Notes under the pieces: model-generated
What the model was told of the DNA's origin: nothing
Seen by the model: the letters and a program-made list of their open reading frames with translations, nothing else
Databases searched by the model: none
Shown: positions 7,283-57,902 of the stretch, in pieces
Position numbering within the stretch: position 1 is the stretch's first letter
Layout of the letters: every line of letters starts with the position of its first letter
Position numbers and translations under genes: made by a program
From: a bacterium
Lineage (GTDB): Bacteria; Armatimonadota; JACIXR01
Reading direction: 5' to 3'
Length of the DNA: 64,000 bases
Assembly (NCBI GenBank): GCA_014360495.1
Contig: JACIXR010000007.1
Location: 44,501 to 108,500 of the forward strand

Positions 7283-7339
7283 CCTTTTTCCCTTGCTTAA
7301 TTTTTTAAATCTGTTTTACTATTATTGGAGGTGATTAAA

Positions 7340-8827: not shown

Positions 8828-9570
8828 CCGTTCCACATTTATTCCTCCCGCCTAAATCCCTACAAGAAGAGGAAATCGTTATCCAGGGAGAGCGGGCATT
8901 CTATCTCCTTGATGTTCTCCGGTTAAAGAGGGGGGAAAAGCTCTATTTAATGGATGGAGAAGGGGCATATTTCCTTGCCGAGCTTGTCTCCGCGAGCAAG
9001 GGGAAGGCTGTCTTGAAAATCATAGAGAGGGAATGGAGGGAGAGAAAGCCACCTTTCATCATCTCCGTAATTCCGATTCTAAAAGGGGATAAAACCGAAA
9101 CGGCAATTCGGGCTTTATCCCAAATGGGCATAACTACATTTTTACCTTTCACAAGCGAACGAACTATTGTGAAATTGGACGAGAAAAGAAAGAGACAGAA
9201 AGAGGAAAGATGGCAAAAGCTGGCAATGGAAGAGGCAGAGCTCTCCTGTTCACCTTTTTATCCCCATATCAAAGACATTCGGGGCTTCAAAGATGTATTT
9301 GATGAACTTTCAGATGTTCCAATTCTTTTAGCCTATGAAGAAGCGACGAGGGAAGACAAGGGTTTTCTATATTCTCTTCCCGAGAGGATTGCCTTAATCA
9401 CAGGACCCGAGGGAGGGTTCAGCGAGGGGGAGATAGAATTCGCGAAGGGGAAAGGAGCATTTATCGTCTCCTTGGGCGAGAACGTAATAAGCGCGGAGTT
9501 CGCACCCATAGTATTCGCGACCTTGGTTTTGTTCTTCCATCGCTTTGACATCCCTTTGAGGGTATTATAG
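8824..9570 (+). CDS. rsmE: 16S rRNA (uracil1498-N3)-methyltransferase RsmE
   Basis: 248 aa. Motif ITGPEGGFSEGEIEFA and overall RsmE-like layout. ATGA overlap with the upstream gene. Confidence 0.85.
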   Translation: MTVPHLFLPPKSLQEEEIVIQGERAFYLLDVLRLKRGEKLYLMDGEGAYFLAELVSASKGKAVLKIIEREWRERKPPFIISVIPILKGDKTETAIRALSQMGITTFLPFTSERTIVKLDEKRKRQKEERWQKLAMEEAELSCSPFYPHIKDIRGFKDVFDELSDVPILLAYEEATREDKGFLYSLPERIALITGPEGGFSEGEIEFAKGKGAFIVSLGENVISAEFAPIVFATLVLFFHRFDIPLRVL

Positions 9571-16351: not shown

Positions 16352-17482
16352 ATGACACCAAGGGAAAGATATAGGAGAACGCTTCTTTTCCAACAAGTTG
16401 ACAGGGTTCCCTTTCAGCCGGGCGGTCCAAGGGAATCAACCCTTAAAAGATGGCAGGAAGAAGGCTTGCCGAAGGATAGAAACTGGTTTGAATACCTCTG
16501 CGAGATATTGGGATTGGAGATTGAAAAAGCGAAAACCCCTTATGTGAGCCTGAGGATTTCCTTCGACCCCTGCCCTCCCTTTGAGGAGAAAATCATTGAA
16601 AGAAGGGGAAACCATCTGATAGTTCAGGATTACAAAGGGGCTATAGTGGAGATAGAGGATAAATACGATTTCTCTTATTTGAGATACGCTAAGGATTTTG
16701 TGACGAGGAAGTGGCATAAATTTCCCGTTGAGAAAGAAGAGGATTGGGATGAGATGAAGAAGAGGTTCAATCCCGATAGTCCGGAGAGGCTTGATGAGGA
16801 ATTGGAAGAGAAAGCGAAGATTTTGAGAGATAGAGACTGGGTTCTGACGATTAACATCCCTGGACCATTCTGGCAGATGAGGGATTGGTGTGGATTGGAG
16901 AACCTCTGCATATTTATGATTGAGAAGCCCAAATTCGTTCACGAGATGAGCGAGTTCTGGCGCAATTTCGTCTCAACTATCTTGAAGAGATATGTTGAGA
17001 AAATCCAGTTTGATTCGGTTATCATAAGCGAGGATATGGCGTATAAGGGAAAATCCATGATTTCCCCTCAAATGGTTAGGGAATTCTTATCTCCCTGCTG
17101 GCGGGAATGGAGCGAGATATTGCGGAAAAGCGGATGTGACATAATCATCCTGGATTCCGATGGCTATATCGCCGAGCTAATCCCTATTTGGATAGAAAAC
17201 GGGATAAATTGCACAATCCCCCTTGAGATAGCCGCGGGAAATGACCCCGTTGAGTTTAGAAAGAGATTTGGCAAGGGCATATCTTATATCGGAGGAATAG
17301 ATAAGAGAAAAATCGCAAAAGGAGGCAAGGATTTAAAAAAAGAGATGGAGAGGATAATACCATTTATGCTTAAGGATGGCGGCTATATCCCCTCCTGCGA
17401 CCATGGAGTGCCTCCCGATATATCCTGGCACACCTTCCTTGAATATTCCTATCTCCTCGCGAAATACACGGGCTGGCTCTGA
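16352..17482 (+). CDS. Uroporphyrinogen decarboxylase (URO-D)-family protein, non-canonical (possible methyltransferase-type member)
   Basis: 376 aa. N-terminal RERYRRTLLFQQVDRVPF resembles the URO-D family start, but the canonical HemE motif is not seen. Confidence 0.6.
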   Translation: MTPRERYRRTLLFQQVDRVPFQPGGPRESTLKRWQEEGLPKDRNWFEYLCEILGLEIEKAKTPYVSLRISFDPCPPFEEKIIERRGNHLIVQDYKGAIVEIEDKYDFSYLRYAKDFVTRKWHKFPVEKEEDWDEMKKRFNPDSPERLDEELEEKAKILRDRDWVLTINIPGPFWQMRDWCGLENLCIFMIEKPKFVHEMSEFWRNFVSTILKRYVEKIQFDSVIISEDMAYKGKSMISPQMVREFLSPCWREWSEILRKSGCDIIILDSDGYIAELIPIWIENGINCTIPLEIAAGNDPVEFRKRFGKGISYIGGIDKRKIAKGGKDLKKEMERIIPFMLKDGGYIPSCDHGVPPDISWHTFLEYSYLLAKYTGWL

Positions 17483-17490
17483 GGCGATTC

Positions 17491-20400
17491 CTACTTCAAT
17501 CTATAGGCGAAAACTTCACATCCGCAAGCGAGAATCGCCTCGTCTCCCTCCCAATTCAATGGATAACTCCTCAACACCTTCCCCTCCTCATCTATTTCCT
17601 CAACGCTTTCCGCCCTCTTCACTTGCCAGGGAAGGGCGTTCCAATTGATTCTCACATTGAATTGCTGACTATCGGGAAGGGGCACGAGGAGAAGTGCATC
17701 TCCTTCCTTCGTCAATCTGAAAGCCCCATTCGTCCTTATACCCTGAAAATCTATCATCTTGCCTTGCGGGTTCAATCTCGCCAAAACGGGGTCCTCTTTC
17801 TCCTCCAATGGCGCCCAGCTTATAGAAGTTATCTCGCTCCCGCTTCCCTCCAGCTTTATCTTACCAAGCCTTATTCGCCTCGTTCCATCATCAAATCCCT
17901 CCAAACTCGCCCTCTCTCCCGTCTTTGGATCCCACATCCCTACCCTAATCTCGAACTCCTCGCCAGCCTTGAACTTCTCGGGAATGGAAAATCTCGCCGA
18001 GCTCCTAATCTTTCCCTCCCATTGGGTCGTGGGAATGGGAGGCTTATGGTCCGCTTGGAACATTATCTCGCCAGCTTTATCAACGAAATGAACGAAGATA
18101 TGCATATCTTTGGGCATCGGCTTTCCCGCCTCCCAAAGTAGCGTAAGCTCCGCCTCCCTATTTCCCACATATCTCAAAGATTCCAAGCTCACCTTCACCG
18201 GTGACCTCCCGCTGACTGGGCGGGCATTTACGAACAACATTGAGGGAGAACGAGACCAATCAACAATCACTCCCTCTTTCCTCTCAATTGCCATTTCCAC
18301 AACCCCACCTTCAACCGGCACCCTCGCATAAACCCCATATTCGGGTAGGATATGCCCCTCTACCTCCCAATCCTGCTTTCCCCTGTTAACCCATACCTCC
18401 CCTCCGTTGTTCCATCTGACGAATTGCCTGTGAATATCGCCATTTACAAATTGGACATCCTCAATATCTTTCAAGGCAAGAGCTCTCATTAAATCATGGA
18501 GAAGCCAATATTTGCGAACGACATCCCTTCCGAAGGGAGCAGGAACCATAGCGGGATGTCCAGTGAGGACTTCGGTAGCGATGTAATCGTCGCTATAGAT
18601 TCCGTGCAAGCGAGAATCAAGACCCGCTACATAGCGCCCCTCATAGCCTGCGCCGTGAAGAGCGAACCTGCTGTGATGCGCCATATCATACCAGGGAATT
18701 CTCTCCGCATCCCTGCATCGTATCGGCCAAACAGCCCAGCCATAATAGCCTGGCGGAGGTATATCAACCCTCAAATGATTCGTCTGTCCGCCATCAAGCC
18801 AACCAATCAACTGGTCGTGTCCGCTCTCGGAGATTTGGGGAGCGGAATCGCCGAGAAAATCCCTTATCCATGCGAAAGCCTTCCCCCATACCTCTTTTGT
18901 GTATAGCCTCGTATAGAACTTACCATCGTGAGTCCAATAATCATAAGGACAAATAGAGGACCAAACATCTATGAAATAGGCTGTGGGAGCGAAGCCCTCC
19001 TTTATGAGCTTGAGATTCCTCTCCAAGAAGGGGAAAACCTGGTCCGCTCGCCAGCGATAGGATTGCGCCTTTCTCCCTTCATTGAACCAAGCAGGAACGG
19101 GATTGCCCTCGTGGGTGAAAGCTATCTTCTTATAGGAAAAACCCTCCGCATCGGGGTAGAAGTCAATGTAATTATCGTGAGGAGCGAAGAGAACACCATG
19201 GCTCTTACAGGTATCCACGAGATAGAGGAAATCTTCAAAGGTGCCTAAATTGGGATTGGGTGGATAGATATCGGGGAGGCGATAATCATATCCCCACCTC
19301 TGCCAATTGTGCCAGACGACGATTGAATCAGTCAATCCGTAGCGGAAAGCTCTCTTCAAAGCTTCAGCGCTATCCCTATACATCCCTCCCCATAAATCAA
19401 AGACAAAGCGTCCAGCGAGCTTGTTAACTCCTTCCGCAGGTTTCAATCCGTTTATCTCCCGCCAGAGTTTCGCTCCCCGCCAGGCGGTTTCCGCGGGGAT
19501 GAGAGAAATGACTTGATTATGGGGAGTGTGGAGGGTATAGACCTTTCGCTCTGGTGAAACTTCAAGATTGCTCGGGACCGCATCTACCCCCTCAACCAAA
19601 GATAGACCGTTTTTGAAATCTAAGCCGACGAATGAAGTTGATAGCTGATGCCCATCAAACCATAGATTGAAAGCCTTAGGCTCGACGATGACATTTCCTA
19701 CTCCAGCATAGATTTTCTCCGCCTCCTCGCTCCATTCCCCAAGGGAGATATCCTCAATGTAAACCACGAGCCAGGGGCGTGCGGAAGGCACATTCTCAAG
19801 CCAGAACTTAACCCGTAGGGCTCCATTCTCCATCCAGATATCCGTTAATAGGTCGTAATCCCCCAGCCAATTGGAGAATGAATGCCTATAAATCAAATGC
19901 CCATCCTTCTGAGTTTTCTTTACCCCTTTAAACGAACTCGCCGAGCGCCAATCGCTAACATCATCTCCTAAGACCCTTACCCTAAACCCATTGAATAAAA
20001 GGCTCTTGGAATCGCTTATGAAACCGATGACGGAGTCAAGGATTCCCTTCTTCCCCTCCCAAATCCTCACCTCATAACCTCTTCCACCTATCTCAATACT
20101 TCCCAACTTAAGATATTTAGCATCAAGGGGTGGAGGGAAAACAGCCCTTTGTGGCGGTGTGCCAACCAATAAAGTTGGCTCAGCCCAATAAGAATCGTCG
20201 CAGGTAGTATCCTTTTTCGGTCCGGGATGGGATTCCAGCTGAAGGCGAATCGCCTCTCCAGCGTATTCGCTCAAATCCACCTCTCCTTCATCCCAAACCT
20301 TCGCCGATGTATGTCTCTCATAGACAATCTTGCCCTCCTCTCCATCCGGTGCGGAGAAGGGAAGGACCCTGACCCTGAATGTTACCCCGTCGCTTGGAGG

Positions 20401-21168
20401 CTCAGTGGGGAGGTTATCCCTTATCGCATTTGCGAAGCGGAGAACAATCGGCTTGCCTTTAGGCAATTTGATGGGAAACTCAATCATTATAGTCCCGGCG
20501 AGATTATTGAACCAAGGCGGATGCATCCCAATTACTTCCCTTTCATCTCCCCTTCTCACACGCTCCCTAACTCTACAGCTCGCCCTCGTCCTTGGGTCGG
20601 TTCCTGCCATCCCAACAGGGGAAATCTGGGGTTTCTCCCCGAACACCCTCAAAATCACCCTGTAAACGGGAAGACGCCAAAGGGCGAGAGCGCTATCTCT
20701 CTTCACCTCAAATGGTTTCCAGGGAATATTTATTTTCGGTTTTGGCGGATTGGGGATATTAGTCCTCAATATGAGGATTGGATGCGCCTCATATTCTCTC
20801 CCCTCTACTTTAAAACGAACAAATGCGTGCACGGGATAATGAGCATTGTAGGTTTGGGGGGAAGGCGCGATTTTGAATTCAAGTTTAGCATTGCCCTTGG
20901 AAGATACACTGAAGGAAGCCCTTTTAGGCTCCGCCTTCCAATCATCTATCAATCCAATCTCCACATCCCCTTTTATCTCGTTCTCCCCTTTGTTCTCCAA
21001 TACAACAGAGACCGAAAAGGGTTTCTCAATAGTCGTCAGCTCGGATGGACCTTCAATCCTTGCCGTTATTGGACCCGCTGTATCAATCGGTGGGTCAAAA
21101 GCGGCAGCTTGCACAGCTAAAAGTAGCAAGCTTAAAAATGCAAATAAATAAACCTGCATTCCTATCAC
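17491..21168 (-). CDS. Giant secreted glycoside-hydrolase-like multidomain protein
   Basis: 1225 aa. Signal peptide MIGMQVYLFAFLSLLLLAVQAAA. Central TIM-barrel-like region rich in aromatics (WHNWQRWGYDY...FAPHDNYIDFYPD...YFIDVW). Confidence 0.5.
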   Translation of the reverse strand: MIGMQVYLFAFLSLLLLAVQAAAFDPPIDTAGPITARIEGPSELTTIEKPFSVSVVLENKGENEIKGDVEIGLIDDWKAEPKRASFSVSSKGNAKLEFKIAPSPQTYNAHYPVHAFVRFKVEGREYEAHPILILRTNIPNPPKPKINIPWKPFEVKRDSALALWRLPVYRVILRVFGEKPQISPVGMAGTDPRTRASCRVRERVRRGDEREVIGMHPPWFNNLAGTIMIEFPIKLPKGKPIVLRFANAIRDNLPTEPPSDGVTFRVRVLPFSAPDGEEGKIVYERHTSAKVWDEGEVDLSEYAGEAIRLQLESHPGPKKDTTCDDSYWAEPTLLVGTPPQRAVFPPPLDAKYLKLGSIEIGGRGYEVRIWEGKKGILDSVIGFISDSKSLLFNGFRVRVLGDDVSDWRSASSFKGVKKTQKDGHLIYRHSFSNWLGDYDLLTDIWMENGALRVKFWLENVPSARPWLVVYIEDISLGEWSEEAEKIYAGVGNVIVEPKAFNLWFDGHQLSTSFVGLDFKNGLSLVEGVDAVPSNLEVSPERKVYTLHTPHNQVISLIPAETAWRGAKLWREINGLKPAEGVNKLAGRFVFDLWGGMYRDSAEALKRAFRYGLTDSIVVWHNWQRWGYDYRLPDIYPPNPNLGTFEDFLYLVDTCKSHGVLFAPHDNYIDFYPDAEGFSYKKIAFTHEGNPVPAWFNEGRKAQSYRWRADQVFPFLERNLKLIKEGFAPTAYFIDVWSSICPYDYWTHDGKFYTRLYTKEVWGKAFAWIRDFLGDSAPQISESGHDQLIGWLDGGQTNHLRVDIPPPGYYGWAVWPIRCRDAERIPWYDMAHHSRFALHGAGYEGRYVAGLDSRLHGIYSDDYIATEVLTGHPAMVPAPFGRDVVRKYWLLHDLMRALALKDIEDVQFVNGDIHRQFVRWNNGGEVWVNRGKQDWEVEGHILPEYGVYARVPVEGGVVEMAIERKEGVIVDWSRSPSMLFVNARPVSGRSPVKVSLESLRYVGNREAELTLLWEAGKPMPKDMHIFVHFVDKAGEIMFQADHKPPIPTTQWEGKIRSSARFSIPEKFKAGEEFEIRVGMWDPKTGERASLEGFDDGTRRIRLGKIKLEGSGSEITSISWAPLEEKEDPVLARLNPQGKMIDFQGIRTNGAFRLTKEGDALLLVPLPDSQQFNVRINWNALPWQVKRAESVEEIDEEGKVLRSYPLNWEGDEAILACGCEVFAYRLK

Positions 21169-21207
21169 CTCTCTATCTCAATATTATAATCAATAAAGGA
21201 TATAACG

Positions 21208-23181
21208 CTATCCTTTTTTGAACTTCTCTCGCGCTTTCTCATAGCCTCCGGAATAGAGATATCTATGCCCCTCAAATAAAGCCTCAATTTCCCAAAATTC
21301 GTTTTGGGGATACCACCAGTGGTCGCCCTCAAAGGGTATCCTTATGTCCCTTATCGCCATCTCCTCGCCGTATCCCCATAATCTCAGCTCCATCTTCTCG
21401 CTCTTTAGGTTTAGCAGGGATACTTGTTGGCTTTTTGGATTCTCCCCATCAAAGTAAATCTCATCAGAACTCATTTTTCCGTTCTCCGTTTCCACAATCA
21501 CCTTATACCACCCGCTCTTGTCCATGGGATAATCAGCCTGGAAGTGAAAGGCTCTCACTGGATTGGGATGCCATACCCATCCCTCTTGATATTCGCCATC
21601 CATTTCCATGACGGGAAGCTTGCCAGAGGGAGTAAAATTTCCCCCTTCAGGACTGAATTCCCTCAAGATTTCCCCATCCCGCATAAGCAGAACCCTCTTC
21701 AATTTCCCAAGAGATGTGGTTATTATGATATGGGCATAGAATTGAGGACGGAGCTCACAAAGGCGGGTGAAATTTCCAATTTCCATGGCTATCAAGCTCG
21801 CTCTTGGATTTTGAGAGTTTGGCTTTGAGAAATAAATTGGGCTTGTTATCGCCCAATTCCCCCTTTCATCCTCAACCCTCGCGATATACCAAGCGCTTTC
21901 CCCTTCCTCAATATCAAAAATAAATGACGTCGTGTATTGAGAATATGATACGAATTCCGCCTCCTTTAAGAGGTCAGCGTAAATTCTCCCCTTCCTGATT
22001 ATCTCAACTGACTTCAAGGGATGAAGATGATGGATTTCCAACTTGCCTCTGTATTTATACTTCGCGCCGATTTCTATGACCTCGCCAACCTCTTTGCCCT
22101 CAATATTTAAGAAAGGGAAAATGGGACCGCCATTTGTTGCAAAGGTTCTCCCTTCGCGAATAGCATCAACAATTGATTTGTAATCCAACTTCCCTGCCTT
22201 AGCGTAAACCCTTCTCGCCCCCGGCGGTATTGTCTCTTTCCTCAAAAGGACCGCATCGGTGGAACCGCTGACCGCGACTTTATTCCCGAGATTCAGTATG
22301 GCGAACCAAATCAATTCCTCCGCTCTATTTGATATATCAAATGCATCGGCGCACTTGCCCAGAATCGCATCGCAAAGGCTCTCCGTTGCCCCCATCCAGT
22401 GAAGACGAGGAAGGGGCGATGTATGGGTGTAAATCACCGCTCCTCCAAGCTTGTGAACGATTTCGCAGAGATATTGAAAGGGAAGCACCGTTCGCCTCAT
22501 CTTGCTTAACTCCTCATTGGGGATGGGGTTCTCTATCCCTGGAGTGTTGGCGTGTCCGGTGAAGACGCCGGTGTGAATCTCGCTTGCGGAACGGAAAAGG
22601 AAATCTGCCCTGCTCAACTCCTCCTCAAATCCCCATTTCCCATCGGATTCCGTGATGTAATCCAAGCCCTCTGCCCTCGCTTGGAGGGCGGTGTAATGCT
22701 CGTCCACTTTTATATCTCCTGTAGGGTCGTGCCTAGTGTGAAGATGATTGTCCCCACAATACCATCCTTCTCTCTCGGGCGAAAACCATTTTTTCAGCTT
22801 AGCGCGAATCAGAATCTTCTCTCCTGCTTTAACGGATATCTTCATATCCAAGGGTAGATAATTTGGACCGCAGTAGATGTTTATTTCCGTTTCTCCCGGC
22901 GGTGATTCCAGGCTGAACTTCCCCTCAACATAAAATCTTCCATCCGAATAGAGCCCTCTTCCCACAACATCTATCTTTTTCCCATCGCTCGCCGTCGCTA
23001 TAACCCTTGCGGGAAGGGGAAAAAGCTTTTCTGTATCCAAAATCTCCACTTCTATTAACCCCTTATCCATCTTTTCAAATCCCTCTTTCCCCAGAACTTG
23101 AAATTCGCTTTTGGATGCTGAAACATCACCCATCCCCTTGAACTCAATAGAGAAGGCGAAAAAGAGGAAAATCAAGAACAT
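21208..23181 (-). CDS. CehA/McbA-like metallohydrolase (PHP-like domain), secreted
   Basis: 657 aa. Hydrophobic N-terminus; WYCGDNHLHTRHDPTGD metal-binding-like motif. Confidence 0.45.
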   Translation of the reverse strand: MFLIFLFFAFSIEFKGMGDVSASKSEFQVLGKEGFEKMDKGLIEVEILDTEKLFPLPARVIATASDGKKIDVVGRGLYSDGRFYVEGKFSLESPPGETEINIYCGPNYLPLDMKISVKAGEKILIRAKLKKWFSPEREGWYCGDNHLHTRHDPTGDIKVDEHYTALQARAEGLDYITESDGKWGFEEELSRADFLFRSASEIHTGVFTGHANTPGIENPIPNEELSKMRRTVLPFQYLCEIVHKLGGAVIYTHTSPLPRLHWMGATESLCDAILGKCADAFDISNRAEELIWFAILNLGNKVAVSGSTDAVLLRKETIPPGARRVYAKAGKLDYKSIVDAIREGRTFATNGGPIFPFLNIEGKEVGEVIEIGAKYKYRGKLEIHHLHPLKSVEIIRKGRIYADLLKEAEFVSYSQYTTSFIFDIEEGESAWYIARVEDERGNWAITSPIYFSKPNSQNPRASLIAMEIGNFTRLCELRPQFYAHIIITTSLGKLKRVLLMRDGEILREFSPEGGNFTPSGKLPVMEMDGEYQEGWVWHPNPVRAFHFQADYPMDKSGWYKVIVETENGKMSSDEIYFDGENPKSQQVSLLNLKSEKMELRLWGYGEEMAIRDIRIPFEGDHWWYPQNEFWEIEALFEGHRYLYSGGYEKAREKFKKG

Positions 23182-23184
23182 CGC

Positions 23185-24606
23185 TCAACGGAAGCGTAGG
23201 GAATAGATATCCGCATCAAGCATTACGAATCTCAACCTGATGATTTTACCCTCCAGTGAGCTCAAATCCTTCCTTCCCTTCCACCGCACAACGCCCTCTA
23301 TCTCGTCGCCATATATCGTTTCGCAATCCTTAAGGGAGAAACCGGGTATAGGCTCGCCTCTCTCGATTAGGATTTCCACAAGGATTTTGCCTCCCGCCGA
23401 TGTTGAGTAGTTAAGAACAAGCTCCTTACCCTTGAATTTTAACGGATGGGTGATAAATTCTCCCCCGGGATAGGAAGCGTGGACTGAAACGAAGCCATCC
23501 ATTCTAAGGGTGAAGCGCCTGAGACAATTTCCCTCTTGAGAATATCCCTCGCTGGAGTAAATAGAGAGCTCGTCGGGGGCATTGGCAAGCTTTGATTTCG
23601 TCACCAATATTCCCCAGGCGGTCATATTGTTCCGATTAACCCACCGCTGGGGTTGAGGTCCAGGGCGAATGAAAGCTTCAAGCCATCTATGCCAGTGAAT
23701 TCCATCCCTACTCGTCATAAAGACCCCATCTGATAACCCTCCGGGAATCTGCTTCTGACGCTCGGGGAAAAATCTCTTGGGAAAACCGAGGTAAATGTGG
23801 GGAGCGCGGAAATAGGGAATGATTGCGTTTGTATAAAGATGCTCTTTTGGAACGGAACCGTAATCAAGAAATTGTGGCTCGCTCCAATTGAGAAAATCCT
23901 GGGAGGTAGCAACCATTATGTCCCTATAGCCCTCGCGAAATGCCCTGTAATATGCGACATAACATTTCTTCACTTCGTCCCAAAAAGCAAGATTTTGGGA
24001 ATCAAAGGCACCCTTCATTAAGACGGGTTCATTTTTCATCAGCCTCCAATGGATTCCATCGGGAGATTGGAAAGCATAAAGTCCTCCCTCGCCCAATCCC
24101 AGAGCCTTATAACGAGCCTCAGGAGGGCAATTGGGGGTTTTATCCTTGAAAGGAGTGAAATTGTGGGTGCCTATTCCCTGCCAAACGATGTTGTTTTTCT
24201 TTGACCCGTTGAACTCAAACAAACCTAACTCGGGTTTAACCCAGTGAATTCCATCTTTGCTTTCAGCATAACAGGTGAACTCGGGATGCTTTTTCTTAGA
24301 AGTCTCCGGGTCATGGGAAGAACCTCTATAATACATGCGAAAAATGCCATCATCTTCAAATACGGTTACATATGCTGAGGTATTTCCTTCCCAGGGCTTA
24401 TCAAAGATTATGGCGACCTCCTGAGGTATTGGATGGTGTAGTTTGAGGGAGACTCCTTCCATCTTAGCTATGAGCCAATCGTCAACGAAGAGCTCCAAAT
24501 TTGAGCCTATATCTCTTACCGGTTCCTCATCTTGAGGCTTAGTAGCTCCCGCTAAGGAAAGGAACCAAAAGCAAGCAAGCATTATACTTTTTAAGGCATA
24601 TCCCAT
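23185..24606 (-). CDS. Secreted beta-propeller glycoside-hydrolase-like protein (GH43/GH117-like fold suspected)
   Basis: 473 aa. Signal peptide MGYALKSIMLACFWFLSLAGA. Repeated W/Y-rich blade-like segments (GIFRMYYRG, DGIHWRLM, DGIHWHRW). Confidence 0.45.
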   Translation of the reverse strand: MGYALKSIMLACFWFLSLAGATKPQDEEPVRDIGSNLELFVDDWLIAKMEGVSLKLHHPIPQEVAIIFDKPWEGNTSAYVTVFEDDGIFRMYYRGSSHDPETSKKKHPEFTCYAESKDGIHWVKPELGLFEFNGSKKNNIVWQGIGTHNFTPFKDKTPNCPPEARYKALGLGEGGLYAFQSPDGIHWRLMKNEPVLMKGAFDSQNLAFWDEVKKCYVAYYRAFREGYRDIMVATSQDFLNWSEPQFLDYGSVPKEHLYTNAIIPYFRAPHIYLGFPKRFFPERQKQIPGGLSDGVFMTSRDGIHWHRWLEAFIRPGPQPQRWVNRNNMTAWGILVTKSKLANAPDELSIYSSEGYSQEGNCLRRFTLRMDGFVSVHASYPGGEFITHPLKFKGKELVLNYSTSAGGKILVEILIERGEPIPGFSLKDCETIYGDEIEGVVRWKGRKDLSSLEGKIIRLRFVMLDADIYSLRFR

Positions 24607-24695: not shown

Positions 24696-25421
24696 CTACA
24701 TTCCATAATCCTCAGCATTTCTGCATAGAGGGTCTATGTAGATATTAGTATTACGATTTCCACTTGCGTCCATCTGCCCATCCCAATCGGGAACCTGCTC
24801 CCGCTTGAACGACTTCACATGCCCATCCACAAAGGCAATGTTAGCGGTATCGTTATGGCGAAAAGCAACCAAATGCCTCTGGTGGTCAGGCTCTTCCGGC
24901 AATGTTTGCCCACCCCAACAACAGCCATTCCTTTGAGAAATGGGATGCCATACCACATGGCATTCGCCAAACATCAATACTTTGGATGGTTGTGCGATTG
25001 AGGCAAGCGATACACCATGCGGGAACCAAAAATCCGGACCCAAGCATTTGTTCCAACCATAGCTCCAATCTTGCAATTCTAAAGGTGGCTGACCCTTGCT
25101 GGGGCATATCATAATCGCCTCGTTCTTAATGTAAGGGTAAATCCCTGCGTGCCGGTAGAGATATTGAACCGCCCAGCAACCAGGAGTTGGAGAACCACAA
25201 TAAGCGTCAGCTGTTAGGAAGAAATGCTCGTCCCAATCCTGAGCATACATCAACGCAGCGGTTGCCAGGTTCCTCATATTGCTCATACATTGGCTCTTCC
25301 TAGCCATCTCTCTCGCCCTTGAGAAAACCGGAAACAGAATGGCGGCGAGAATTGCTATGATAGCTATAACCACTAGTAATTCAATTAAGGTAAAACCTCT
25401 CTTTTTACTTTTCTTTATCAC
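24696..25421 (-). CDS. DUF1559 (H-X9-DG) protein with prepilin-type N-terminal cleavage/methylation domain
   Basis: 241 aa. [32 protein letters not shown]... and C-terminal [13 protein letters not shown] (H-X9-DG). Confidence 0.88.
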
Positions 25422-35584: not shown

Positions 35585-36127
35585 TCAATATTCTATCCCT
35601 TTACGGGGTGCGGTGCCCTTCTGGTAGGGATGCCTTACCATCTTCATCTCCGTTATGAGGTCAGCGATTTGCAAAATCTCCTCAGGGCAATTCCTACCTG
35701 TTATCACTATGTCCATCTTTCCAGCGAATTCCTTCAAAAAATCCAAAACCTCTTTTTTATCCAAAAGGGAGAGATTTATCGCCCAAGTCAGCTCGTCCAA
35801 GATGAGGAAATCGCATTTTCCCTCTTCCGCCCATCTTCTCGCTAAAGCGAAACCCACCCTCGCCAATTCCCTATCCTTTTCGCTTATCTCCCTTAATCCC
35901 TTGAAATCCTTCTCCTTTTCCAAAATCTCTTTTGGGACAGCGAAGCCTTTTTCTCCAAAGGTTTTTAAAAAGAAATTATCCAAATTTGACAAAACCTTCG
36001 CCTCGGATGTTGGGAACTTAAGAAATTGAACCATTAGCACTTTCCTCCCCGCCCCAAGCGCCCTTATCCCCATTCCTATTGCGGATGTCGTTTTGCCCTT
36101 TCCTTCGCCAGTGAGAACGAATATCAT
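35585..36127 (-). CDS. cobO: Cob(I)yrinic acid a,c-diamide / cob(I)alamin adenosyltransferase (CobA/CobO/BtuR type)
   Basis: MIFVLTGEGKGKTTSAIGMGIRALGAGRKVLMVQFLK P-loop signature and LILDELTWAI. Start chosen at ATG 36127, giving an ATGA overlap with the nrdJ stop; the ORF track start 36154 is an upstream extension. Confidence 0.85.
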   Translation of the reverse strand: MIFVLTGEGKGKTTSAIGMGIRALGAGRKVLMVQFLKFPTSEAKVLSNLDNFFLKTFGEKGFAVPKEILEKEKDFKGLREISEKDRELARVGFALARRWAEEGKCDFLILDELTWAINLSLLDKKEVLDFLKEFAGKMDIVITGRNCPEEILQIADLITEMKMVRHPYQKGTAPRKGIEY

Positions 36128-38670
36128 CCCGCAGCGCAAACGCTCCAACCACAATTAGGGCATATCTTACATCCCTCCTGCTGAAGCAGTGGCGTCTGAC
36201 ATACGGGACAAAGCTCCTCATCTTCCGAGACGCTCTTTCCCTCGCTGGGACCAAGCTTCAGGTAAATGGAGGGACCCTTTGCCTTCACATCCCTCATATC
36301 CGCCAGCTCTTCTGCTTTCCCCCTGCTCTCTTTCTCCCCACCAAAGGCATAAACGCCCTTTATTGACTTGTATCTGAAAACCGTTATATCCTTACATCCG
36401 AGCTCATGGGCAAGAAGGTAAGCCTTCTTTATATCCTCAACAGTTGCACTTGCGGGAAAGTTTATCGTTTTTGAAACGGAAGAATCGGTCCATTTCTGTA
36501 TCTCAGCGAGCGCCTTTATGTGGTCCTCCGCGGAAATATCAAGGGAAGTAACGAATACACGCTTCAAATGGGGCGGAATATAGGGGAGATTCTGACAGGA
36601 GCCCTCGTTCTCTGCGACATCTCTAATTAGCGCCTCGTCAAAAAGCCCTTCCCTTTCCATCAACTTCTCAAACACAGGATTCACATAGTAGAATGTGCCG
36701 ATTGAAACCCTTTTCTCATAAACGAGGCTGAAATTCGGCTCTACTCCAGCTGAACACCCAGCAATCATAGAGATGCTACCCGTGGGAGCAACGATTGTGG
36801 TATAGGCATTTCGCAAGCCATAAGCCTTTATCCCCTCCACAATGCTTTGCCAATCTTGACGCCAGCTCTCCTTTTCATAGAATCCCCTAAAGGGAAGCTT
36901 CCCCTCGGGGAAGAAGCTCTTCTTAAAGTAAGGGAAACTACCCCTTTCCTTAGCGAGTTGAATAGAAGCCACCTTTGAGTGGAAGTTGACGAACTCCATC
37001 AACCTTCCCATCCAATCCCTTCCCTCTTCGGAATCATAGGGAACCTCTAATTCATAGAGAAGGTCGGCTAAACCCATAATCCCCAAGCCTATTTTTCTCG
37101 TGTTTAGGCTCATTTCCTCTATCTCTGGGAGAGGATAATGATTGACATCCAGGATGTTATCAAGGAACTTGGTTGCCAGTTTAATAACTCTTGCGAGGTC
37201 ATCCCAATCTATTGATACCTCCCTGACTCCATTACGCTCCCTAACCCTTACGAAAGCCCAGAGGTTTATTGAACCGAGGTCGCAGGATTCGTTGGGATAT
37301 AAAAGCGATTCCCCACAGGGATTAGTTGTCTCAATTGGACCCAGGGTCTTGAGGAAAGGATTGTATTTGTTCGCGTTATCGGCGAAGATGACACCCGGCT
37401 CGGCTGATTCCCAGGCTTGATAGGCGATGAGGTCAAACAACGCATGCGGGTCAATGTATCTCATAACCTCACCAGTGCGGGGATTGACAAGTGGGTAAGG
37501 TTTTCTCTCCCGATAATAATCCCAGAACTCTGGCTTTATGAGGACGGAGATGTTGAAATTCCTCAACTGAAGATTTCCCCTCTTCGCGGTTATGAATTGC
37601 TCTATGTCGGGGTGGTTGGAGTTCAAAATCCCCATATTCGCTCCCCTTCTAATTCCGCCTTGCTTTATTACCTCCGTCATCTTATCAAAGAGGGTCATAA
37701 ATGTGACTGGTCCGGAAGCTGTTCCCGCAGTGCTCTTGACGAAATCTCCCGCTGGTCTCAGCTTGGAGAAGTTATATCCGACTCCACCGCCGGATTTGAA
37801 AATCAAGGCTGCGTTCTTAAGCGTCTCCATAATGGAGTAAAGGCTATCATCTATATCCAAAACGAAGCACGCGAGCCCCATCCCTAATTCCCTGCCGAAG
37901 TTGGCGAGAGCGGGCGTATTGGGGAAAAATTTCCTGTCCACCATTATCTGATAATAATCCTCCAGCTCCTTCTCATAATCATCAAACTCGCCCCTGCTCA
38001 ACATGTCAAGCAATTGGGAAAGGGGAATCTTCACCTTCCCCTTTTTATTAAATCTCTCATACATCCTGAAGAGCGCCTCTATATGAAAAGGATTAAGGAG
38101 ATACTTGCCTATCCTCAATTTCCCCTCATATTGCGTTGGAGAAAGCTTCTCCTTCGGCAGTGGCTTTCCACCCCTCTGGAAAACCCTCTCATCATACATT
38201 ATAGATGGCAAAACGACATGGGTCGCCACCCTCTGGAACAGCTCCTTAGGGGATTCTATTACCTTCCCTTGAGGGTCTTTCCTAAGATATCGGGAAGCGA
38301 GAACTCTGAGCCCATTTATATCAAACCTCTTATCAACCTCGTCTATCTCTGTTTTATTGAGGATTTGCTGCTTCTCCTTGCGAATTTCCGCCCTTTTCCT
38401 TCTATATAAAATATAGGCTTTAGCTACCCTCGCCTTCCCTTCCTCTATTAGGACTGCCTCAACTATATCTTGAACCTCTTCAACTTTAGGAATTTGCCAA
38501 GGCTGAAGCTTCTTCTCCAATATCTCCACAACCCTCTTGCTAAGCTTATCAGCGAGCTCGTAGTCGGGCTCTCCCACCGCCTCCATAGCCTTGAAGATAG
38601 CGTTTGTTATCTTCTCTCTCTCAAAAGGGACTACCTTTCCATCTCTTTTCTCAATTTTCTCTATTCTCAC
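36124..38670 (-). CDS. nrdJ: Ribonucleotide reductase, adenosylcobalamin-dependent (class II), with N-terminal ATP-cone and C-terminal Cys-rich zinc ribbon
   Basis: 848 aa. ATP-cone N-terminus (IEKRDGKVVPFEREKITNAIFKA); active-site NPCGE motif; C-terminal CPVCQ...CKICPNCGWSVC. No nrdB-like partner adjacent, and the next gene is cobO. Confidence 0.75.
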   Translation of the reverse strand: MRIEKIEKRDGKVVPFEREKITNAIFKAMEAVGEPDYELADKLSKRVVEILEKKLQPWQIPKVEEVQDIVEAVLIEEGKARVAKAYILYRRKRAEIRKEKQQILNKTEIDEVDKRFDINGLRVLASRYLRKDPQGKVIESPKELFQRVATHVVLPSIMYDERVFQRGGKPLPKEKLSPTQYEGKLRIGKYLLNPFHIEALFRMYERFNKKGKVKIPLSQLLDMLSRGEFDDYEKELEDYYQIMVDRKFFPNTPALANFGRELGMGLACFVLDIDDSLYSIMETLKNAALIFKSGGGVGYNFSKLRPAGDFVKSTAGTASGPVTFMTLFDKMTEVIKQGGIRRGANMGILNSNHPDIEQFITAKRGNLQLRNFNISVLIKPEFWDYYRERKPYPLVNPRTGEVMRYIDPHALFDLIAYQAWESAEPGVIFADNANKYNPFLKTLGPIETTNPCGESLLYPNESCDLGSINLWAFVRVRERNGVREVSIDWDDLARVIKLATKFLDNILDVNHYPLPEIEEMSLNTRKIGLGIMGLADLLYELEVPYDSEEGRDWMGRLMEFVNFHSKVASIQLAKERGSFPYFKKSFFPEGKLPFRGFYEKESWRQDWQSIVEGIKAYGLRNAYTTIVAPTGSISMIAGCSAGVEPNFSLVYEKRVSIGTFYYVNPVFEKLMEREGLFDEALIRDVAENEGSCQNLPYIPPHLKRVFVTSLDISAEDHIKALAEIQKWTDSSVSKTINFPASATVEDIKKAYLLAHELGCKDITVFRYKSIKGVYAFGGEKESRGKAEELADMRDVKAKGPSIYLKLGPSEGKSVSEDEELCPVCQTPLLQQEGCKICPNCGWSVCAAG

Positions 38671-38689
38671 TTAAAGCACCTCTCTAATT

Positions 38690-40411
38690 CTATTTCTTGA
38701 ATATCTTCAGAAGTTCGTCAAGCGGGAGGCAGTTCACGATGTCCTCCTTTTCGAGCCAACCCCTCCTCGCCGTGGAAACGCCATACTCTATGAGATTTAA
38801 CTGGTCTATGCTATGCGCATCCGTGTTAATTGCGAACTTCACCCCTTTGCCCTTACCAGCCCGGCAGAGTATGTCGGGCAAATCCATCCTATCAGGGAAG
38901 GCATTTATCTCCAAAATCGTCCCCGTCCTTACTGCCTCATCTATCAATATCTCACCATCCACCTCGTAAGCATCCCTCTTGCCGATAAGCCTCCCAGTGG
39001 GATGCCCGAGGATATCCACGACCTCCCTCTCCATCGCCTTGCAAATCCTCTCCGTCATCACCTCTTTCGGCTGCTTGAAGGCGCTATGAACAGAGGCTAT
39101 CACGAAATCCAACTGCTCCAAGACCTCCTCATCTATGTCAAGCGTCCCGTCCATCCTTATATTGACTTCAACCCCTGCAAGAACCCTTATCCCTTCCAAC
39201 TCCTCATTTAATTTCTCTATCTCCTCTTTTTCCTTCAGGATTTCCTCCTCATCCTGCCCTGCTGCCACCCCCAACCCCTTCGTGTGGTCGGCTATCCCTA
39301 TATATTCATAGCCCATTTCCCTTGCTGCCAAAGCCATCTCCTTAATAGTGAAGTTCCCATCTGAATGTTTTGTATGGATATGTAGGTCTCCCCTTATATC
39401 CTTAATCTCCACCAACTTGGGAAGCTTCCCTTCCGCAGCCGCTTCTATCTCCCCTCTATCCTCCCTCAGCTCGGGAGGAATCCATGGCAAATTTAGTGCA
39501 CCATAAACTTCCTCCTCGGTCCTTCCCGCTATCTTCTCATCCCCTCTAAAAACTCCATATTCGCTGATTTTCAATCCCATATCCTGGGCTATCTTCCTTA
39601 AATGAATGTTATGTTCCTTCGAACCAGTGAAGTATTGGAGAGCGGCACCGAAGCAATCCGGCTCCACCACCCTCACATCCATTTGAATGCCCATCTCAGT
39701 GATAACGCTCGTCTTCGTCTCCCCTTTAGCTATAACCTCCCGCACAACTGGGAGGGAGACGAAGGCATCCATAACCTCCAAGGGCTGAGTAGAGGTAACC
39801 AAAATATCTATGTCCCCTATAGTTTCCTTCATTCTCCTAACAGAGCCAGCGGGCTCTATCTTATCTATTGGCGCCCTTTCCTTCAACCATTCCACTACTT
39901 GACGGGCGAATGGCAAGGCGATGCCCAAGGGAACACGCTCACCAAATCTCCTCAATCTCTCTATTCCCTTTAAGATATTCTCCTCCGTCTTCGGACCGAG
40001 TCCAGGGAGTTGGCGCAATTTCCCCTCCCTCGCCGCCTGCTCCATCTCCTCTATTGATTTTATTCCAAGCTGATTATAAACGAGCCATGCGGTTTTAGGT
40101 CCAACCTCGGGAATCTTGAGAAGTTCAACCACTCCCGCGGGAATGCTTGCCTCCAACTCCTCGAGATAGGAAAGCCGCCCCGTCTCAATGAGTTCCCCTA
40201 TTTTCTCCGCTATGCTTTTGCCGATGCCGGGGATTTCCTTGAGGCGCCCCTCCCGATAAACCTTCTCTATCGGCTCGGAAAGGGACTCCACAACCAAAGC
40301 CGCTTTCTCGTATGCCCTCACTTTGAAAGGATTCTCACCCTTAATATCCAATAGCTCGGCTATGCGATAGAAAATTTGAGCGATTTGAGCGTTGGATATG
40401 GGCATAGCCAA
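38690..40411 (-). CDS. polX: DNA polymerase X family protein with C-terminal PHP domain
   Basis: 573 aa. N-terminal AQIAQIFYRIAELLDIKGENPFKVRAYEKAA (Pol beta-like HhH region); C-terminal PHP motifs GDLHIHTKHSDG and GIADHT. Confidence 0.88.
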   Translation of the reverse strand: MAMPISNAQIAQIFYRIAELLDIKGENPFKVRAYEKAALVVESLSEPIEKVYREGRLKEIPGIGKSIAEKIGELIETGRLSYLEELEASIPAGVVELLKIPEVGPKTAWLVYNQLGIKSIEEMEQAAREGKLRQLPGLGPKTEENILKGIERLRRFGERVPLGIALPFARQVVEWLKERAPIDKIEPAGSVRRMKETIGDIDILVTSTQPLEVMDAFVSLPVVREVIAKGETKTSVITEMGIQMDVRVVEPDCFGAALQYFTGSKEHNIHLRKIAQDMGLKISEYGVFRGDEKIAGRTEEEVYGALNLPWIPPELREDRGEIEAAAEGKLPKLVEIKDIRGDLHIHTKHSDGNFTIKEMALAAREMGYEYIGIADHTKGLGVAAGQDEEEILKEKEEIEKLNEELEGIRVLAGVEVNIRMDGTLDIDEEVLEQLDFVIASVHSAFKQPKEVMTERICKAMEREVVDILGHPTGRLIGKRDAYEVDGEILIDEAVRTGTILEINAFPDRMDLPDILCRAGKGKGVKFAINTDAHSIDQLNLIEYGVSTARRGWLEKEDIVNCLPLDELLKIFKK

Positions 40412-54659: not shown

Positions 54660-57600
54660 TTAGAAGGAGCGGGTGAGGTCGAGCCTGAGACCGACATTGT
54701 TCTTCCCCTTGAAGTTATCGGTGTAGTAGCCGGACAAGCTGAGGGAGTTCTCAGGATTTATGTTGCGAGAATAGGAGAACCTGTAGGTTATTCCACCAAC
54801 CTTGTCTCCCGCAATTGAGGAGTAGTCAAGGCTAACAGAGGTATCAAGCGTCTCATAAGCGGAAAGCTTGCCGGAGATGGCAAAAAGGCTCTTGTAAACT
54901 CCCTTATTTTCCCTCTCTATGAAGTTGTATTCGTGGCATCCCTTGAAGGAAAGCTTATCGTTGAGAGGGAATGCAATCTCCCAATTGAGCTTTCTGGTAA
55001 GCTTCTTATTTGGGTCGGGAACATTATCAAGAAGCGCAATCTTCAAGTTGAACTTCGGGGAAGGAGTGTATTGAAGTGCATACTGCTTGTTCATCTTTCC
55101 ATTCATATAATTGCTATCCAGAATGTATTCACCAGAAAGGACTGGAGAGCCCTGATATTTCAAGACGACCCTCTTGGTATTGAGGACATTTCCCTTTTGG
55201 TCCTCGGGATTTCTCAACAAAGAAAGGGTGAAGGTCTTCCCATCAAAGGGATAGACGATATCCAATCCCCTCGTCGTCTTGTCGTTCTGCCCGCTCCTAT
55301 CCTTGAAGGTGAAGCTGAGCTTATAGGGGGCACCTTGAGGTTGATAATTAGCCTGAAGCAGGCGGTAAGAGTTGGATTTATCTCCGAGGGACTGGATTCC
55401 ATATGCGAGATTGCCAGTTAAACCTGGGATGAAAGTCCTCGTTAAGGAGAATTCCTGCTTCTTTCCGTCCTTCCCGTTTTGCGTCATCTTGATGTTCTCC
55501 GCTTTAAACTGGGATTGGGAATCAAGTTTTTGAACAAGAGCTATCCTCCTGAAGCTGTGCTCCGCGCTTTCCTTAAAGGAAAAGCTCAAGGTTCCCGCTT
55601 TTCCTTTAAGCAAAGGAGAGTTGATATCAATGCTTCCTTCGTCAATTCTCTTGCCATCCTCCAGATTTTTACGAGAAAAGTTAAGGGCGTAGGAGAAGTT
55701 TTTCTTCAAAGACTGGTTAAAGTTTATAACGGTCAAATCGGACTGAAATTCCTTATCCCCTTCCTTCCTGTATCCCTGCATCCTCTGGAGTTTGAGGTGA
55801 GCATTGGCGAAGGCTTTCTCAACTATCAGGTTATAGATGTCGTTGGAACGATTAACATCGCTAACCTGCTTGGTGGAATCCAAAGTGAGATAGGCTTTCA
55901 GATTATTCTTGCCGGTGAATGCCAAGTTATGGACGCTATGGGTTGTGGATTTGCCCCACATCCCGTCGCTCCTCGTGATATCCAAGCTCTCTATCTTGGT
56001 GATGGAGGTGGAGAAGGCAAGATTCTTTGAGAGAGGCAATGCAAGGAAGAAGTCCTTCTTCTCCGCGGACCTCTCCTGGGCAAGGCGTCCCTTGTCAGCC
56101 TCTGCTAAATCCGCAAATCTCGTGAACGATGGGTCTATGGTTTGAGTTGCGAAGCGGAAAATAGGCTGGTCCTTCACTTTCAGCTCTATGCTCTTCCCGT
56201 CAATTGAACCTTGAGAGTCCCCTATCTTGCGAGAGGATAGAGAAAGGGTCAAGCCCGGCAGGAGGTTATCAAGCTTGAAATTACCGCTCAAGAGGGATTT
56301 CTTTATTCCCCATTCATTGGCAAATCTCTTCTTTTCCGGGTCGGTCAAATCTCCGAAACGCCTGAACCCCTCGCTGAACTCACTCTTATAGAACGAGATT
56401 TGCCACTTATCGCTCTTCAATTGTAGGCTGTTGCCCTTCCAACCTTCTTTCCCATCCAATAAGCTAGCGATGCTAAAGGAAGTCTGCAATTTAGGCGAGA
56501 AGTTGAACGAACCCTCAATGGTCTTCCTCGCCAACCCCTTTTCCTTTGCGAGCTGACCAGCGTCGGGCTCAGTTAAATTGCCAAAGCGAGCGAAATCCCG
56601 TCCAACTTCCTGCTTGCTGATTGAAAGGGAGAAATTCTTCCCCTTCAAGTCCAATTTCCCCCTCTCAATTCCATCCTTCTCATCTTTTATCCTCGTCTGG
56701 GAAAGGTTGAGGGTAATATTGGGGAGAAGATTCTTGGAAAGTTCCAGTGAATTCCTGCTTATCCCAATCTCCTTCGCCCATATTTTCGCTTCCGGCTCGT
56801 TCAAATCCTTCCCCCTCACGAAATCGGAGGTTATGCTTTGCTGGGTTAGACGGAGGAACTCGTTGTTATTGCCCTTTAGCTCTATCTGCCTCAATTTTCC
56901 CTCCCCTTTACCGTCGGTGGCGGATTTGTAAACAGTGGAAAGGGAAAGCGAATCGGAGAGCTTTATCTGCCCAGAGATTATCTGCTTGGTGATTCCCTTC
57001 TCCCTTGCCACTCCTTGGTTGCCCTTCGTTTGGGGGTCAACGGTTTGGCGAGTGAAGGAAAGGGAAAAAGCGGAGCTTTGGTAGCCAACTCCAAACTTCT
57101 TCGTGCCCGCCTCCTGCTTGAGGAAGGCAACATCCTTGCCGTTTAGATTATCGGGAATTCCCTGAGCGAGGAAATCCTTGTCTATCTCCTGATAGAAGAG
57201 GGTCAGCTTCCCCTTCCCCAAGGAGTAATCCAACCAGTTGGCGAAAGCCTTGCCTTTCTGGGAGGGAGCAGGGGCAGCGTTATCCCTTGTCATACCAGCA
57301 AGATAGTTATTCGTTGGTGATGTTCTGCTGAAGAAGAGGAGTCCCCTCCAAGTCGCATTGGAGCTCAACTTTGAGGTCAAGTCACTGCCGACAATCCAAG
57401 TCTCCATCTTATCCTGACCCGCTACAGCGGGGCGGAAGAAAGTAAATAGGCTGAGGGTAGATGAACCGCCGTTGAACGCAAGCTGGAGAGGCAGTCCGCT
57501 TGGAGATTGATTCTGCTTATTCGGGTCATAGTGATAAGAGACGATGAGGGTTCCCGATTTTATGTCCCCAGGGAGGAGAATCGTTCCATTAGCGTAATCA

Positions 57601-57854
57601 ATGATATAATCTACATCCCGCTTGAGGAAGCGCCCATTTGCGATTACCTTCTCGCTTCCCTCCACTATCCCCCTATGGGAGAGATAGAATACGCCACCCT
57701 TTACCACCTTCAGGGTGTCTGTGTAGAAAAGGGCTCCCTGTACGGCTGGCGCCTCATTCTGAAACCTCAAGGCTCCATTGGGCGCCGGCAATTCAAGGGA
57801 AAAAGCAAGGGAAGCTATCAAGCTAATTAAACTCAAAAATAGGAAACGCTTCAT
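54660..57854 (-). CDS. Giant outer-membrane-like protein with internal ~45-aa degenerate repeats and C-terminal aromatic residue
   Basis: Signal peptide MKRFLFLSLISLIASLAFS, taking the start at the internal Met 57854; the ORF track start is 57884. At least five repeats of type [D/E]F.RFG.L.[ED]P.... (DFARFGNLTEPDAG..., GFRRFGDLTDPEKK..., SFTRFADLAEADKG...). Ends ...GLRLDLTRSF, as in beta-barrel OMPs. Confidence 0.5.
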   Translation of the reverse strand: MKRFLFLSLISLIASLAFSLELPAPNGALRFQNEAPAVQGALFYTDTLKVVKGGVFYLSHRGIVEGSEKVIANGRFLKRDVDYIIDYANGTILLPGDIKSGTLIVSYHYDPNKQNQSPSGLPLQLAFNGGSSTLSLFTFFRPAVAGQDKMETWIVGSDLTSKLSSNATWRGLLFFSRTSPTNNYLAGMTRDNAAPAPSQKGKAFANWLDYSLGKGKLTLFYQEIDKDFLAQGIPDNLNGKDVAFLKQEAGTKKFGVGYQSSAFSLSFTRQTVDPQTKGNQGVAREKGITKQIISGQIKLSDSLSLSTVYKSATDGKGEGKLRQIELKGNNNEFLRLTQQSITSDFVRGKDLNEPEAKIWAKEIGISRNSLELSKNLLPNITLNLSQTRIKDEKDGIERGKLDLKGKNFSLSISKQEVGRDFARFGNLTEPDAGQLAKEKGLARKTIEGSFNFSPKLQTSFSIASLLDGKEGWKGNSLQLKSDKWQISFYKSEFSEGFRRFGDLTDPEKKRFANEWGIKKSLLSGNFKLDNLLPGLTLSLSSRKIGDSQGSIDGKSIELKVKDQPIFRFATQTIDPSFTRFADLAEADKGRLAQERSAEKKDFFLALPLSKNLAFSTSITKIESLDITRSDGMWGKSTTHSVHNLAFTGKNNLKAYLTLDSTKQVSDVNRSNDIYNLIVEKAFANAHLKLQRMQGYRKEGDKEFQSDLTVINFNQSLKKNFSYALNFSRKNLEDGKRIDEGSIDINSPLLKGKAGTLSFSFKESAEHSFRRIALVQKLDSQSQFKAENIKMTQNGKDGKKQEFSLTRTFIPGLTGNLAYGIQSLGDKSNSYRLLQANYQPQGAPYKLSFTFKDRSGQNDKTTRGLDIVYPFDGKTFTLSLLRNPEDQKGNVLNTKRVVLKYQGSPVLSGEYILDSNYMNGKMNKQYALQYTPSPKFNLKIALLDNVPDPNKKLTRKLNWEIAFPLNDKLSFKGCHEYNFIERENKGVYKSLFAISGKLSAYETLDTSVSLDYSSIAGDKVGGITYRFSYSRNINPENSLSLSGYYTDNFKGKNNVGLRLDLTRSF

Positions 57855-57902
57855 AGTTTCTCTCACCTCCTTGGGGACCACCATCGGGGTTCAACTCCCA
57901 AA

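Follow-up and report, generated by a model that had tools for sequence, protein, structure and literature searches.

We analyzed a 64,000-nucleotide (nt) stretch of DNA from an uncultured bacterium of the Armatimonadota (JACIXR01), comprising positions 44,501 to 108,500 of contig JACIXR010000007.1 (assembly GCA_014360495.1); this whole stretch is referred to as the window, and positions are counted from its first base. The analysis centered on two adjoining minus-strand genes, nrdJ and cobO, which encode a ribonucleotide reductase (RNR) and a CobA/CobO/BtuR protein, respectively. nrdJ (36124–38670) begins with a GTG codon and encodes 848 amino acids, and was identified from its open reading frame (ORF), its Pfam and NCBIfam matches and its match to a solved structure. 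cobO (35585–36127) encodes 180 amino acids, and was identified by Pfam family PF02572 and by the fold of its structural model. The two genes meet in an ATGA tetranucleotide on the minus strand (36124–36127), read directly from the sequence, in which the TGA stop codon of nrdJ (36126–36124) overlaps the ATG start codon of cobO (36127–36125); the junction reads ...GCGGGATGATATTC, with the reductase frame GCG GGA TGA. These coordinates and the overlap agree with an initial annotation of the window, which had proposed that a class II, adenosylcobalamin (AdoCbl)-dependent reductase is translationally coupled to the enzyme that makes its cofactor. A longer cobO ORF that starts at a TTG codon and extends to 36154 was ruled out. 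Every one of the 25 aligned homologues begins at the position of this ATG, with an N-terminus that reads M-I/L-x-x-x-T/C-G-x-GKGK; we therefore take the ATG as the real start of cobO and the 4-nt overlap as real.

The sequence of the reductase identifies it as a class II NrdJ of the Thermotoga type, with a predicted AdoCbl-dependent activity. The NCBIfam model NrdJ_Z (TIGR02504) matched it with 688.9 bits (cut-off 399.95), the top four NCBIfam models were all of B12-dependent RNRs, and class III models matched its ATP-cone only. The class I model TIGR02506 (NrdE_NrdA) was also passed (378.3 bits, cut-off 341.05), at a score ~310 bits below that of the class II model. Its Pfam domains are an ATP-cone, the all-alpha Ribonuc_red_lgN and the barrel Ribonuc_red_lgC, the last of which (PF02867, 499.6 bits) covers the ten-stranded catalytic barrel at residues 267–764 (36379–37872, minus strand). 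The closest solved structure was Thermotoga maritima NrdJ (1xjk, E 1.1e-111), followed by class I chains at E 1e-70 or worse. The two class II proteins are alike over barrel residues 260–770 and share the motifs ACFV, TNPCGE, C(N/D)LGSI and ITV(F/Y)R (PDB 1XJE/1XJK; T. maritima NrdJ is a dimeric enzyme). Within this region, C268 (ACFV) and C463 (ESCDLGSI) correspond in the alignment to the two active-site redox cysteines of T. maritima NrdJ, and the finger loop NPCGE at residues 450–454 (37309–37323, minus strand) aligns with its TNPCGE, making C452 the predicted thiyl-radical cysteine. Burnim et al. (PMC9669993) counted NPCXE in 3175 of the 3347 class II sequences that they compared, including NPCGE in 2005, and 1914 of their 2022 class I sequences have NLCXE. 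Because the class I finger loop is NLCXE, NPCGE is diagnostic of class II, and the caution in the initial annotation that class I NrdA shares this motif was mistaken. Furthermore, the Tyr-Tyr dyad of class I enzymes is absent: ITVFR at residues 762–766 (T763, V764) aligns with MYYLR of yeast R1 and matches ITVYR of T. maritima NrdJ. Thus, the class II call made earlier was borne out by the profile scores and the structure match, and it needs none of the indirect arguments then offered for it, namely the lack of an adjacent nrdB, the linkage to cobO and the zinc ribbon. In length and domain set, the nearest homologues in the databases match the window protein, and they carry the name adenosylcobalamin-dependent RNR; they come from unclassified bacterial metagenome-assembled genomes (MAGs; 85–97% identity) and from Persephonella and Sulfurihydrogenibium (~65%). 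One homologue, the 1282-residue P0067, carries an intein (PF14890) and NUMOD3 domains and is an intein-interrupted member of this reductase clade.

At the two ends of the reductase lie an ATP-cone and a tail rich in cysteines. The N-terminal ATP-cone, as claimed earlier, was recovered at residues 5–94 (38389–38658, minus strand; PF03477, 81.4 bits, cut-off 25.8, E 7e-23), with a canonical KRDG at residues 8–11. Among class II RNRs, 11.3% have an ATP-cone, whose role there is unclear (PMC9669993); 120 of the 120 NrdJ homologues listed here carry one. The C-terminal cluster, which had been described as a Cys4-type zinc ribbon, is indeed present (C821 to C845; 36136–36210, minus strand), but it holds six cysteines rather than four (C821, C824, C834, C837, C840 and C845, spaced C-x2-C-x9-C-x2-C-x2-C-x4-C) and corresponds to the known cysteine-rich domain (CRD), a majority feature of NrdJ proteins. 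The CRD is present in ~70% of non-monomeric NrdJ sequences (PMC5704485), full-length T. maritima NrdJ among them (PMC5704485), and in 71% of dimeric class II RNRs (PMC9669993). In Stackebrandtia nassauensis NrdJd, the CRD cysteines C920/C923/C933/C936/C939/C945 were modeled as four zinc ligands and a redox pair by which the active site is reduced again (Loderer et al. 2017, PMC5704485); their spacing is nearly the same as in the window, with x5 instead of x4 as the last spacer. By homology only, C821/C824/C837/C840 would be the zinc ligands and C834/C845 the redox pair. The combination of ATP-cone and CRD is the norm in this NrdJ clade. Compared with T. maritima NrdJ, the linker from barrel to zinc finger is only ~50 residues long in the window protein, which also carries the canonical N-terminal ATP-cone (the comparison did not extend to the T. 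maritima N-terminus).

According to PMC5704485, no native reductant is known for the CRD of NrdJ. Redox proteins were observed beside cobO in Persephonella (L093 of P. atlantica, 7151–8944; L091, 3611–7347): a ~600-residue protein of the Thioredox_DsbH family follows cobO, and in one species a pyridine-nucleotide disulfide oxidoreductase precedes cobO in place of nrdJ. These neighbors might be candidate reductants for the CRD.

CobO matched PF02572 (CobA_CobO_BtuR) with 176.4 bits (cut-off 25.7, E 7.8e-52) over profile positions 4–172 of 172, and its only solved sequence relative is Salmonella enterica CobA (BtuR; 4hut, E 1.7e-21), to which it is ~31–34% identical. An AlphaFold2 model computed from 26 sequences had a mean predicted local distance difference test score of 91.4. 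Its four best PDB matches were all S. enterica CobA (1g64/1g5r/4hut) with template-modeling (TM) scores of 0.72–0.84, followed by thymidine kinases, KaiC and RecA at ~0.5. The P-loop GEGKGKTT at CobO residues 7–14 (36086–36109, minus strand) is common to S. enterica CobA (GxGKGKTT), and G7, G9, K10, G11, K12 and T14 are invariant in the 26 aligned homologues. The two proteins also have in common the LDE motif (D111/E112), TGR (R145), the histidine H166 and a C-terminal GI(E/D)Y. In their source databases, the CobO homologues are named cob(I)yrinic acid a,c-diamide adenosyltransferase. The CobA-specific fold match and the profile match thus uphold the adenosyltransferase identity assigned at the outset, and CobO is a putative short-form CobA-type adenosyltransferase.

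The arrangement of translation signals differs between the two genes. A Shine-Dalgarno-like sequence, GAGAGGTG (38677–38684, minus strand), lies 6 nt 5' of the nrdJ GTG, within the 19-nt gap that follows the upstream gene polX, and presumably serves nrdJ. cobO has no Shine-Dalgarno-like site at normal spacing; the sole GGAG is located 15 nt upstream of its start, where the reductase tail is encoded, within the codons for a conserved Gly-Trp-Ser. The missing site fits re-initiation at cobO by ribosomes that terminate on nrdJ. Exact 4-nt overlaps were counted in 9 of the 31 same-strand neighbor pairs of the window's ORF list, including lon/valS and clpP/clpX. The 4-nt overlap is therefore the default operon junction in this genome and, because such overlaps are routine, it says nothing by itself about a functional link. 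Of the earlier proposal, co-expression of the two genes stands, while translational coupling had been drawn from the overlap only.

The functional link is instead supported by recurrence of the gene pair across lineages. We found nrdJ followed by cobO, in this order, at 15 other loci, 13 of which have an overlap or a gap of at most 14 nt; across these 13 tight pairs, NrdJ identity to the window protein ranges from 39% to 95%. The 4-nt overlap itself recurs at L001–L004, L115, L062 and in the cultured Aquificota Sulfurihydrogenibium azorense (L089) and Persephonella atlantica (L093). Gaps of 1–14 nt separate the genes at L008, L010, L011, L114 and L046, and wider gaps of 89 nt and 265 nt were seen at L090 and at L094, a Paceibacterota MAG. 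The adjacency in relatives that had been suggested for survey was thus found in all four related MAG or metagenome contigs (L001–L004; NrdJ 86–95% identical, overlap in 4/4) and at 11 loci outside the lineage. Flanking genes vary from locus to locus: the pair is preceded by polX in the window's lineage, by ftsA-ftsZ in L114/L115 and by radC in P. atlantica. The conserved unit is the pair rather than a larger block. Furthermore, the closer an NrdJ is in identity to that of the window, the closer its CobO tends to be as well (Spearman 0.87, n=15; 0.67, n=11 outside the window's lineage), which fits co-inheritance of the two proteins. nrdJ lies directly upstream in 4 of the 6 loci of the closest CobO relatives outside this lineage, and in only 5 of the 70 assessable distant CobA loci among the matches listed. 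These adjacency frequencies are rough, because the search of genome contigs with NrdJ gave 5 loci, too few for a species-level survey, and the matches listed from the metagenome search with the CobO alignment were all distant relatives (33–44% identity). None of 17 CobA-like genes on viral contigs adjoins an nrdJ-like gene.

At two of the Patescibacteria-like loci (L114, 4001–6203; L094, 6834–8480), nrdJ-cobO is directly followed by genes for a DUF4430 protein and a DUF6580 protein, and in L114 the gene next after these encodes the class III RNR activase NrdG2 (175.7 bits, cut-off 131). We take DUF4430 to be a relative of the domain with which transcobalamin-type proteins bind cobalamin, and DUF6580 to be a membrane-protein family; the arrangement may be a B12 uptake module.

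We propose that nrdJ and cobO form a cofactor-and-client module in which CobO makes AdoCbl for the class II NrdJ with which it is co-expressed, a reading to which we assign a probability of roughly 0.82. According to this model, CobO would use ATP to convert cob(I)alamin, either salvaged or newly made, into AdoCbl, the form needed by NrdJ. NrdJ would bind AdoCbl and, as expected from its family, homolysis of the cobalt-carbon bond would lead to a thiyl radical on C452. Reduction of nucleoside diphosphates would then oxidize C268/C463, and the six-cysteine CRD, with its putative zinc site and C834/C845 redox pair, would re-reduce the active site, while the ATP-cone may add control of overall activity by ATP and dATP. 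On the side of expression, nrdJ and cobO would be co-transcribed, and ribosomes ending at the nrdJ UGA would probably re-initiate at the overlapping AUG, such that CobO is made whenever NrdJ is.

Several observations weigh against this model. One alternative is operon packing, in which CobO would be the general housekeeping adenosyltransferase for corrinoids, working either in salvage or in de novo synthesis (at the cobyrinic acid a,c-diamide step), and would be tied to NrdJ by nothing more specific than a shared transcript. The generic status of the 4-nt overlap in the window, found even between the unrelated lon and valS, favors this, as does the fact that 65 of the 70 (~93%) assessable generic CobA loci among the matches listed are not beside nrdJ. 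cobO is located away from nrdJ in a Persephonella sp. and in a Patescibacteria genome, where the closest cobO lies elsewhere, and the close NrdJ homologues at L005, L006, L095 and L096 have no cobO nearby. In addition, NrdJ need not be the only protein that CobO serves, since genes for two further corrinoid proteins lie in the window, one for an MtaB homologue and one for an MtaA-MtaC fusion. The promoter scan did not locate a promoter for the nrdJ-cobO unit, and scans revealed no convincing terminator after cobO and no internal promoter, with counts not above those of shuffled sequence. However, packing accounts poorly for a tight pair kept in the same order at 13 other loci despite differing neighbors and NrdJ identities that fall to 39%. 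Moreover, MtaB/MtaC-type methyltransferases use methyl-corrinoid and not AdoCbl, which leaves NrdJ as the single AdoCbl client seen in the window. We therefore regard packing without a functional relation as unlikely. A stronger version of the module, in which the short CobA clade found after nrdJ in this lineage, the Hydrogenothermaceae and Patescibacteria-like genomes is a dedicated partner of NrdJ, made at a fixed ratio by termination-reinitiation and handing over or re-loading AdoCbl directly, is about equally doubtful. Direct hand-off of AdoCbl has been described for human MMAB and methylmalonyl-CoA mutase, and the present data neither support nor exclude it here. If CobO were such a partner, a clade-specific insertion at its corrin-facing loop would be an NrdJ-docking element.

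That same insertion enters the question of whether CobO is an adenosyltransferase at all, or a P-loop protein that diverged within the PF02572 fold and took on another role, such as that of an escort that binds cobalamin or of a regulator that acts on NrdJ in a nucleotide-dependent manner. CobO scores under the NCBIfam CobA equivalog cut-offs (TIGR00708, 140.9 versus 167.75 bits; NF004637, 152.9 versus 185), and a model for a 'P-loop NTPase family protein' (NF005648) exists within the fold. It lacks the ~30-residue N-terminal extension of S. enterica CobA, residue 31 of which aligns with CobO residue 2, and ~15–20 clade-specific residues, which cannot be aligned reliably, are inserted at the loop that carries Phe91 and Trp93 in S. 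enterica. HMMER and MAFFT place this loop differently; F62, in a near-invariant KGF, is a candidate equivalent of Phe91, and there is no conserved Trp. We take Phe91 and Trp93 to push the lower ligand aside, which yields the four-coordinate cob(II)alamin named in the title of entry 4HUT. These features also count against the module. The TIGR00708 cut-off serves for naming and does not mark a structural feature, and the score to NF005648 (71.8 bits) is far under that model's own cut-off of 248. In view of the ATP-site residues that are common to S. enterica CobA and invariant in the clade, the CobA-specific fold match and the names given to the homologues, a role other than adenosyl transfer appears very improbable. 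The remaining alternative, that the reductase is a class I NrdA whose NrdB partner is encoded elsewhere, is favored by the passed class I cut-off, and the class II model outscores the class I model by 310 bits. Together with NPCGE in place of NLCXE, Thr-Val in place of Tyr-Tyr as in T. maritima NrdJ, the six-cysteine CRD and the exclusively adenosylcobalamin-dependent names of the nearest homologues, this speaks against class I, and no nrdB or nrdF was found in the 64-kb window or beside nrdJ in relatives. The class I reading is effectively refuted.

Comparison with known systems places the module among B12-dependent reductases encoded near enzymes of their cofactor. In S. azorense and P. atlantica, the two genes and their order are as in the window, down to the 4-nt ATGA overlap (NrdJ 65–66%, CobO 41–53% identical to the window proteins); their flanks differ, as neither species has polX upstream and P. 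atlantica has its Thioredox_DsbH gene downstream. In Lactobacillus delbrueckii, the cluster nrdJ-cbrS-cbrT-pduO was interpreted as supplying cofactor to NrdJ (PMC5997447). As in the window, this cluster joins genes for a class II RNR and a cobalamin adenosyltransferase; it differs in that the adenosyltransferase is of the PduO type, an energy-coupling factor (ECF) B12 transporter is included, and nrdJ and pduO are not overlapping neighbors. To our knowledge, PduO is not homologous to CobA. A literature search found no open-access paper that describes the CobA-type pairing with nrdJ, only the PduO-type cluster.

The pair forms the end of a minus-strand gene run, tig-clpP-clpX-lon-valS-polX-nrdJ-cobO, beyond which the next gene is convergent. 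Gaps within the run measure 12 nt before polX and 19 nt before nrdJ. polX (38690–40411, minus strand) encodes a DNA polymerase/3'-5' exonuclease PolX (Pfam; NF006375, 588.3 bits, cut-off 426) and is probably co-transcribed with nrdJ. The polX-nrdJ-cobO block is kept in 4/4 of the related contigs L001–L004, where the adjacency of valS is variable, and suggests a unit for DNA repair and supply of deoxynucleoside triphosphates (dNTPs). The only strong promoter-like sites found by the promoter scan lie upstream of a tRNA pair at ~48,800. An Rfam scan at gathering thresholds found the two tRNAs only, with no cobalamin riboswitch or other regulatory RNA in the window, and Pfam scans of 39 ORFs of the window gave no nrdB, nrdD, nrdR, cob/cbi biosynthesis or btu genes.

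Elsewhere in the window, the plus-strand segment 51497–54631 holds two genes, the first of which encodes a homologue of MtaB, the methanol:corrinoid methyltransferase (PF12176, E 4e-196; NF040651, 648 bits, just under the cut-off of 720). It is followed after 9 nt by a gene for a 583-residue fusion of an MtaA/CmuA-type methyltransferase of the URO-D fold with an MtaC-like B12-binding domain. By sequence similarity, the two resemble the methanol methyltransferase systems of methanogens, here in a bacterium that is uncultured. Another ORF that is URO-D-like is located at 16352–17482. Directly after glyQ-glyS, with a 4-nt overlap, a plus-strand gene (61993–63057) encodes an HD + HD_assoc protein, an architecture that we take to be that of a dGTPase/dNTP triphosphohydrolase and thus presumably another enzyme of the dNTP pool in the window. 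Four large minus-strand ORFs of 1225, 657, 473 and 1074 residues, at 17491–24606 and 54660–57884, remained without a Pfam match at E 1e-6. A gene whose product has an N-terminal methylation motif like that of type IV pilins (24696–25421) adjoins the first three.

Enzymes that use AdoCbl are often encoded with their own adenosyltransferase, as are PduO in pdu operons, EutT in eut operons and MMAB with the mutase, and the nrdJ-cobO pair is an ordinary, routine case of this arrangement. Both proteins are ordinary members of well-studied families, and the identical overlapping pair is already present in public genomes of cultured Aquificota. The finding thus matters little beyond annotation; it adds an uncultured, apparently thermophilic lineage that keeps its class II RNR with the enzyme that would make its coenzyme. 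More generally, a tight nrdJ-cobO pair could mark B12-salvaging organisms in which synthesis of DNA precursors is the main client of AdoCbl, and such pairs are compact candidate systems for a test of direct hand-off of the cofactor from a CobA-type enzyme to NrdJ.

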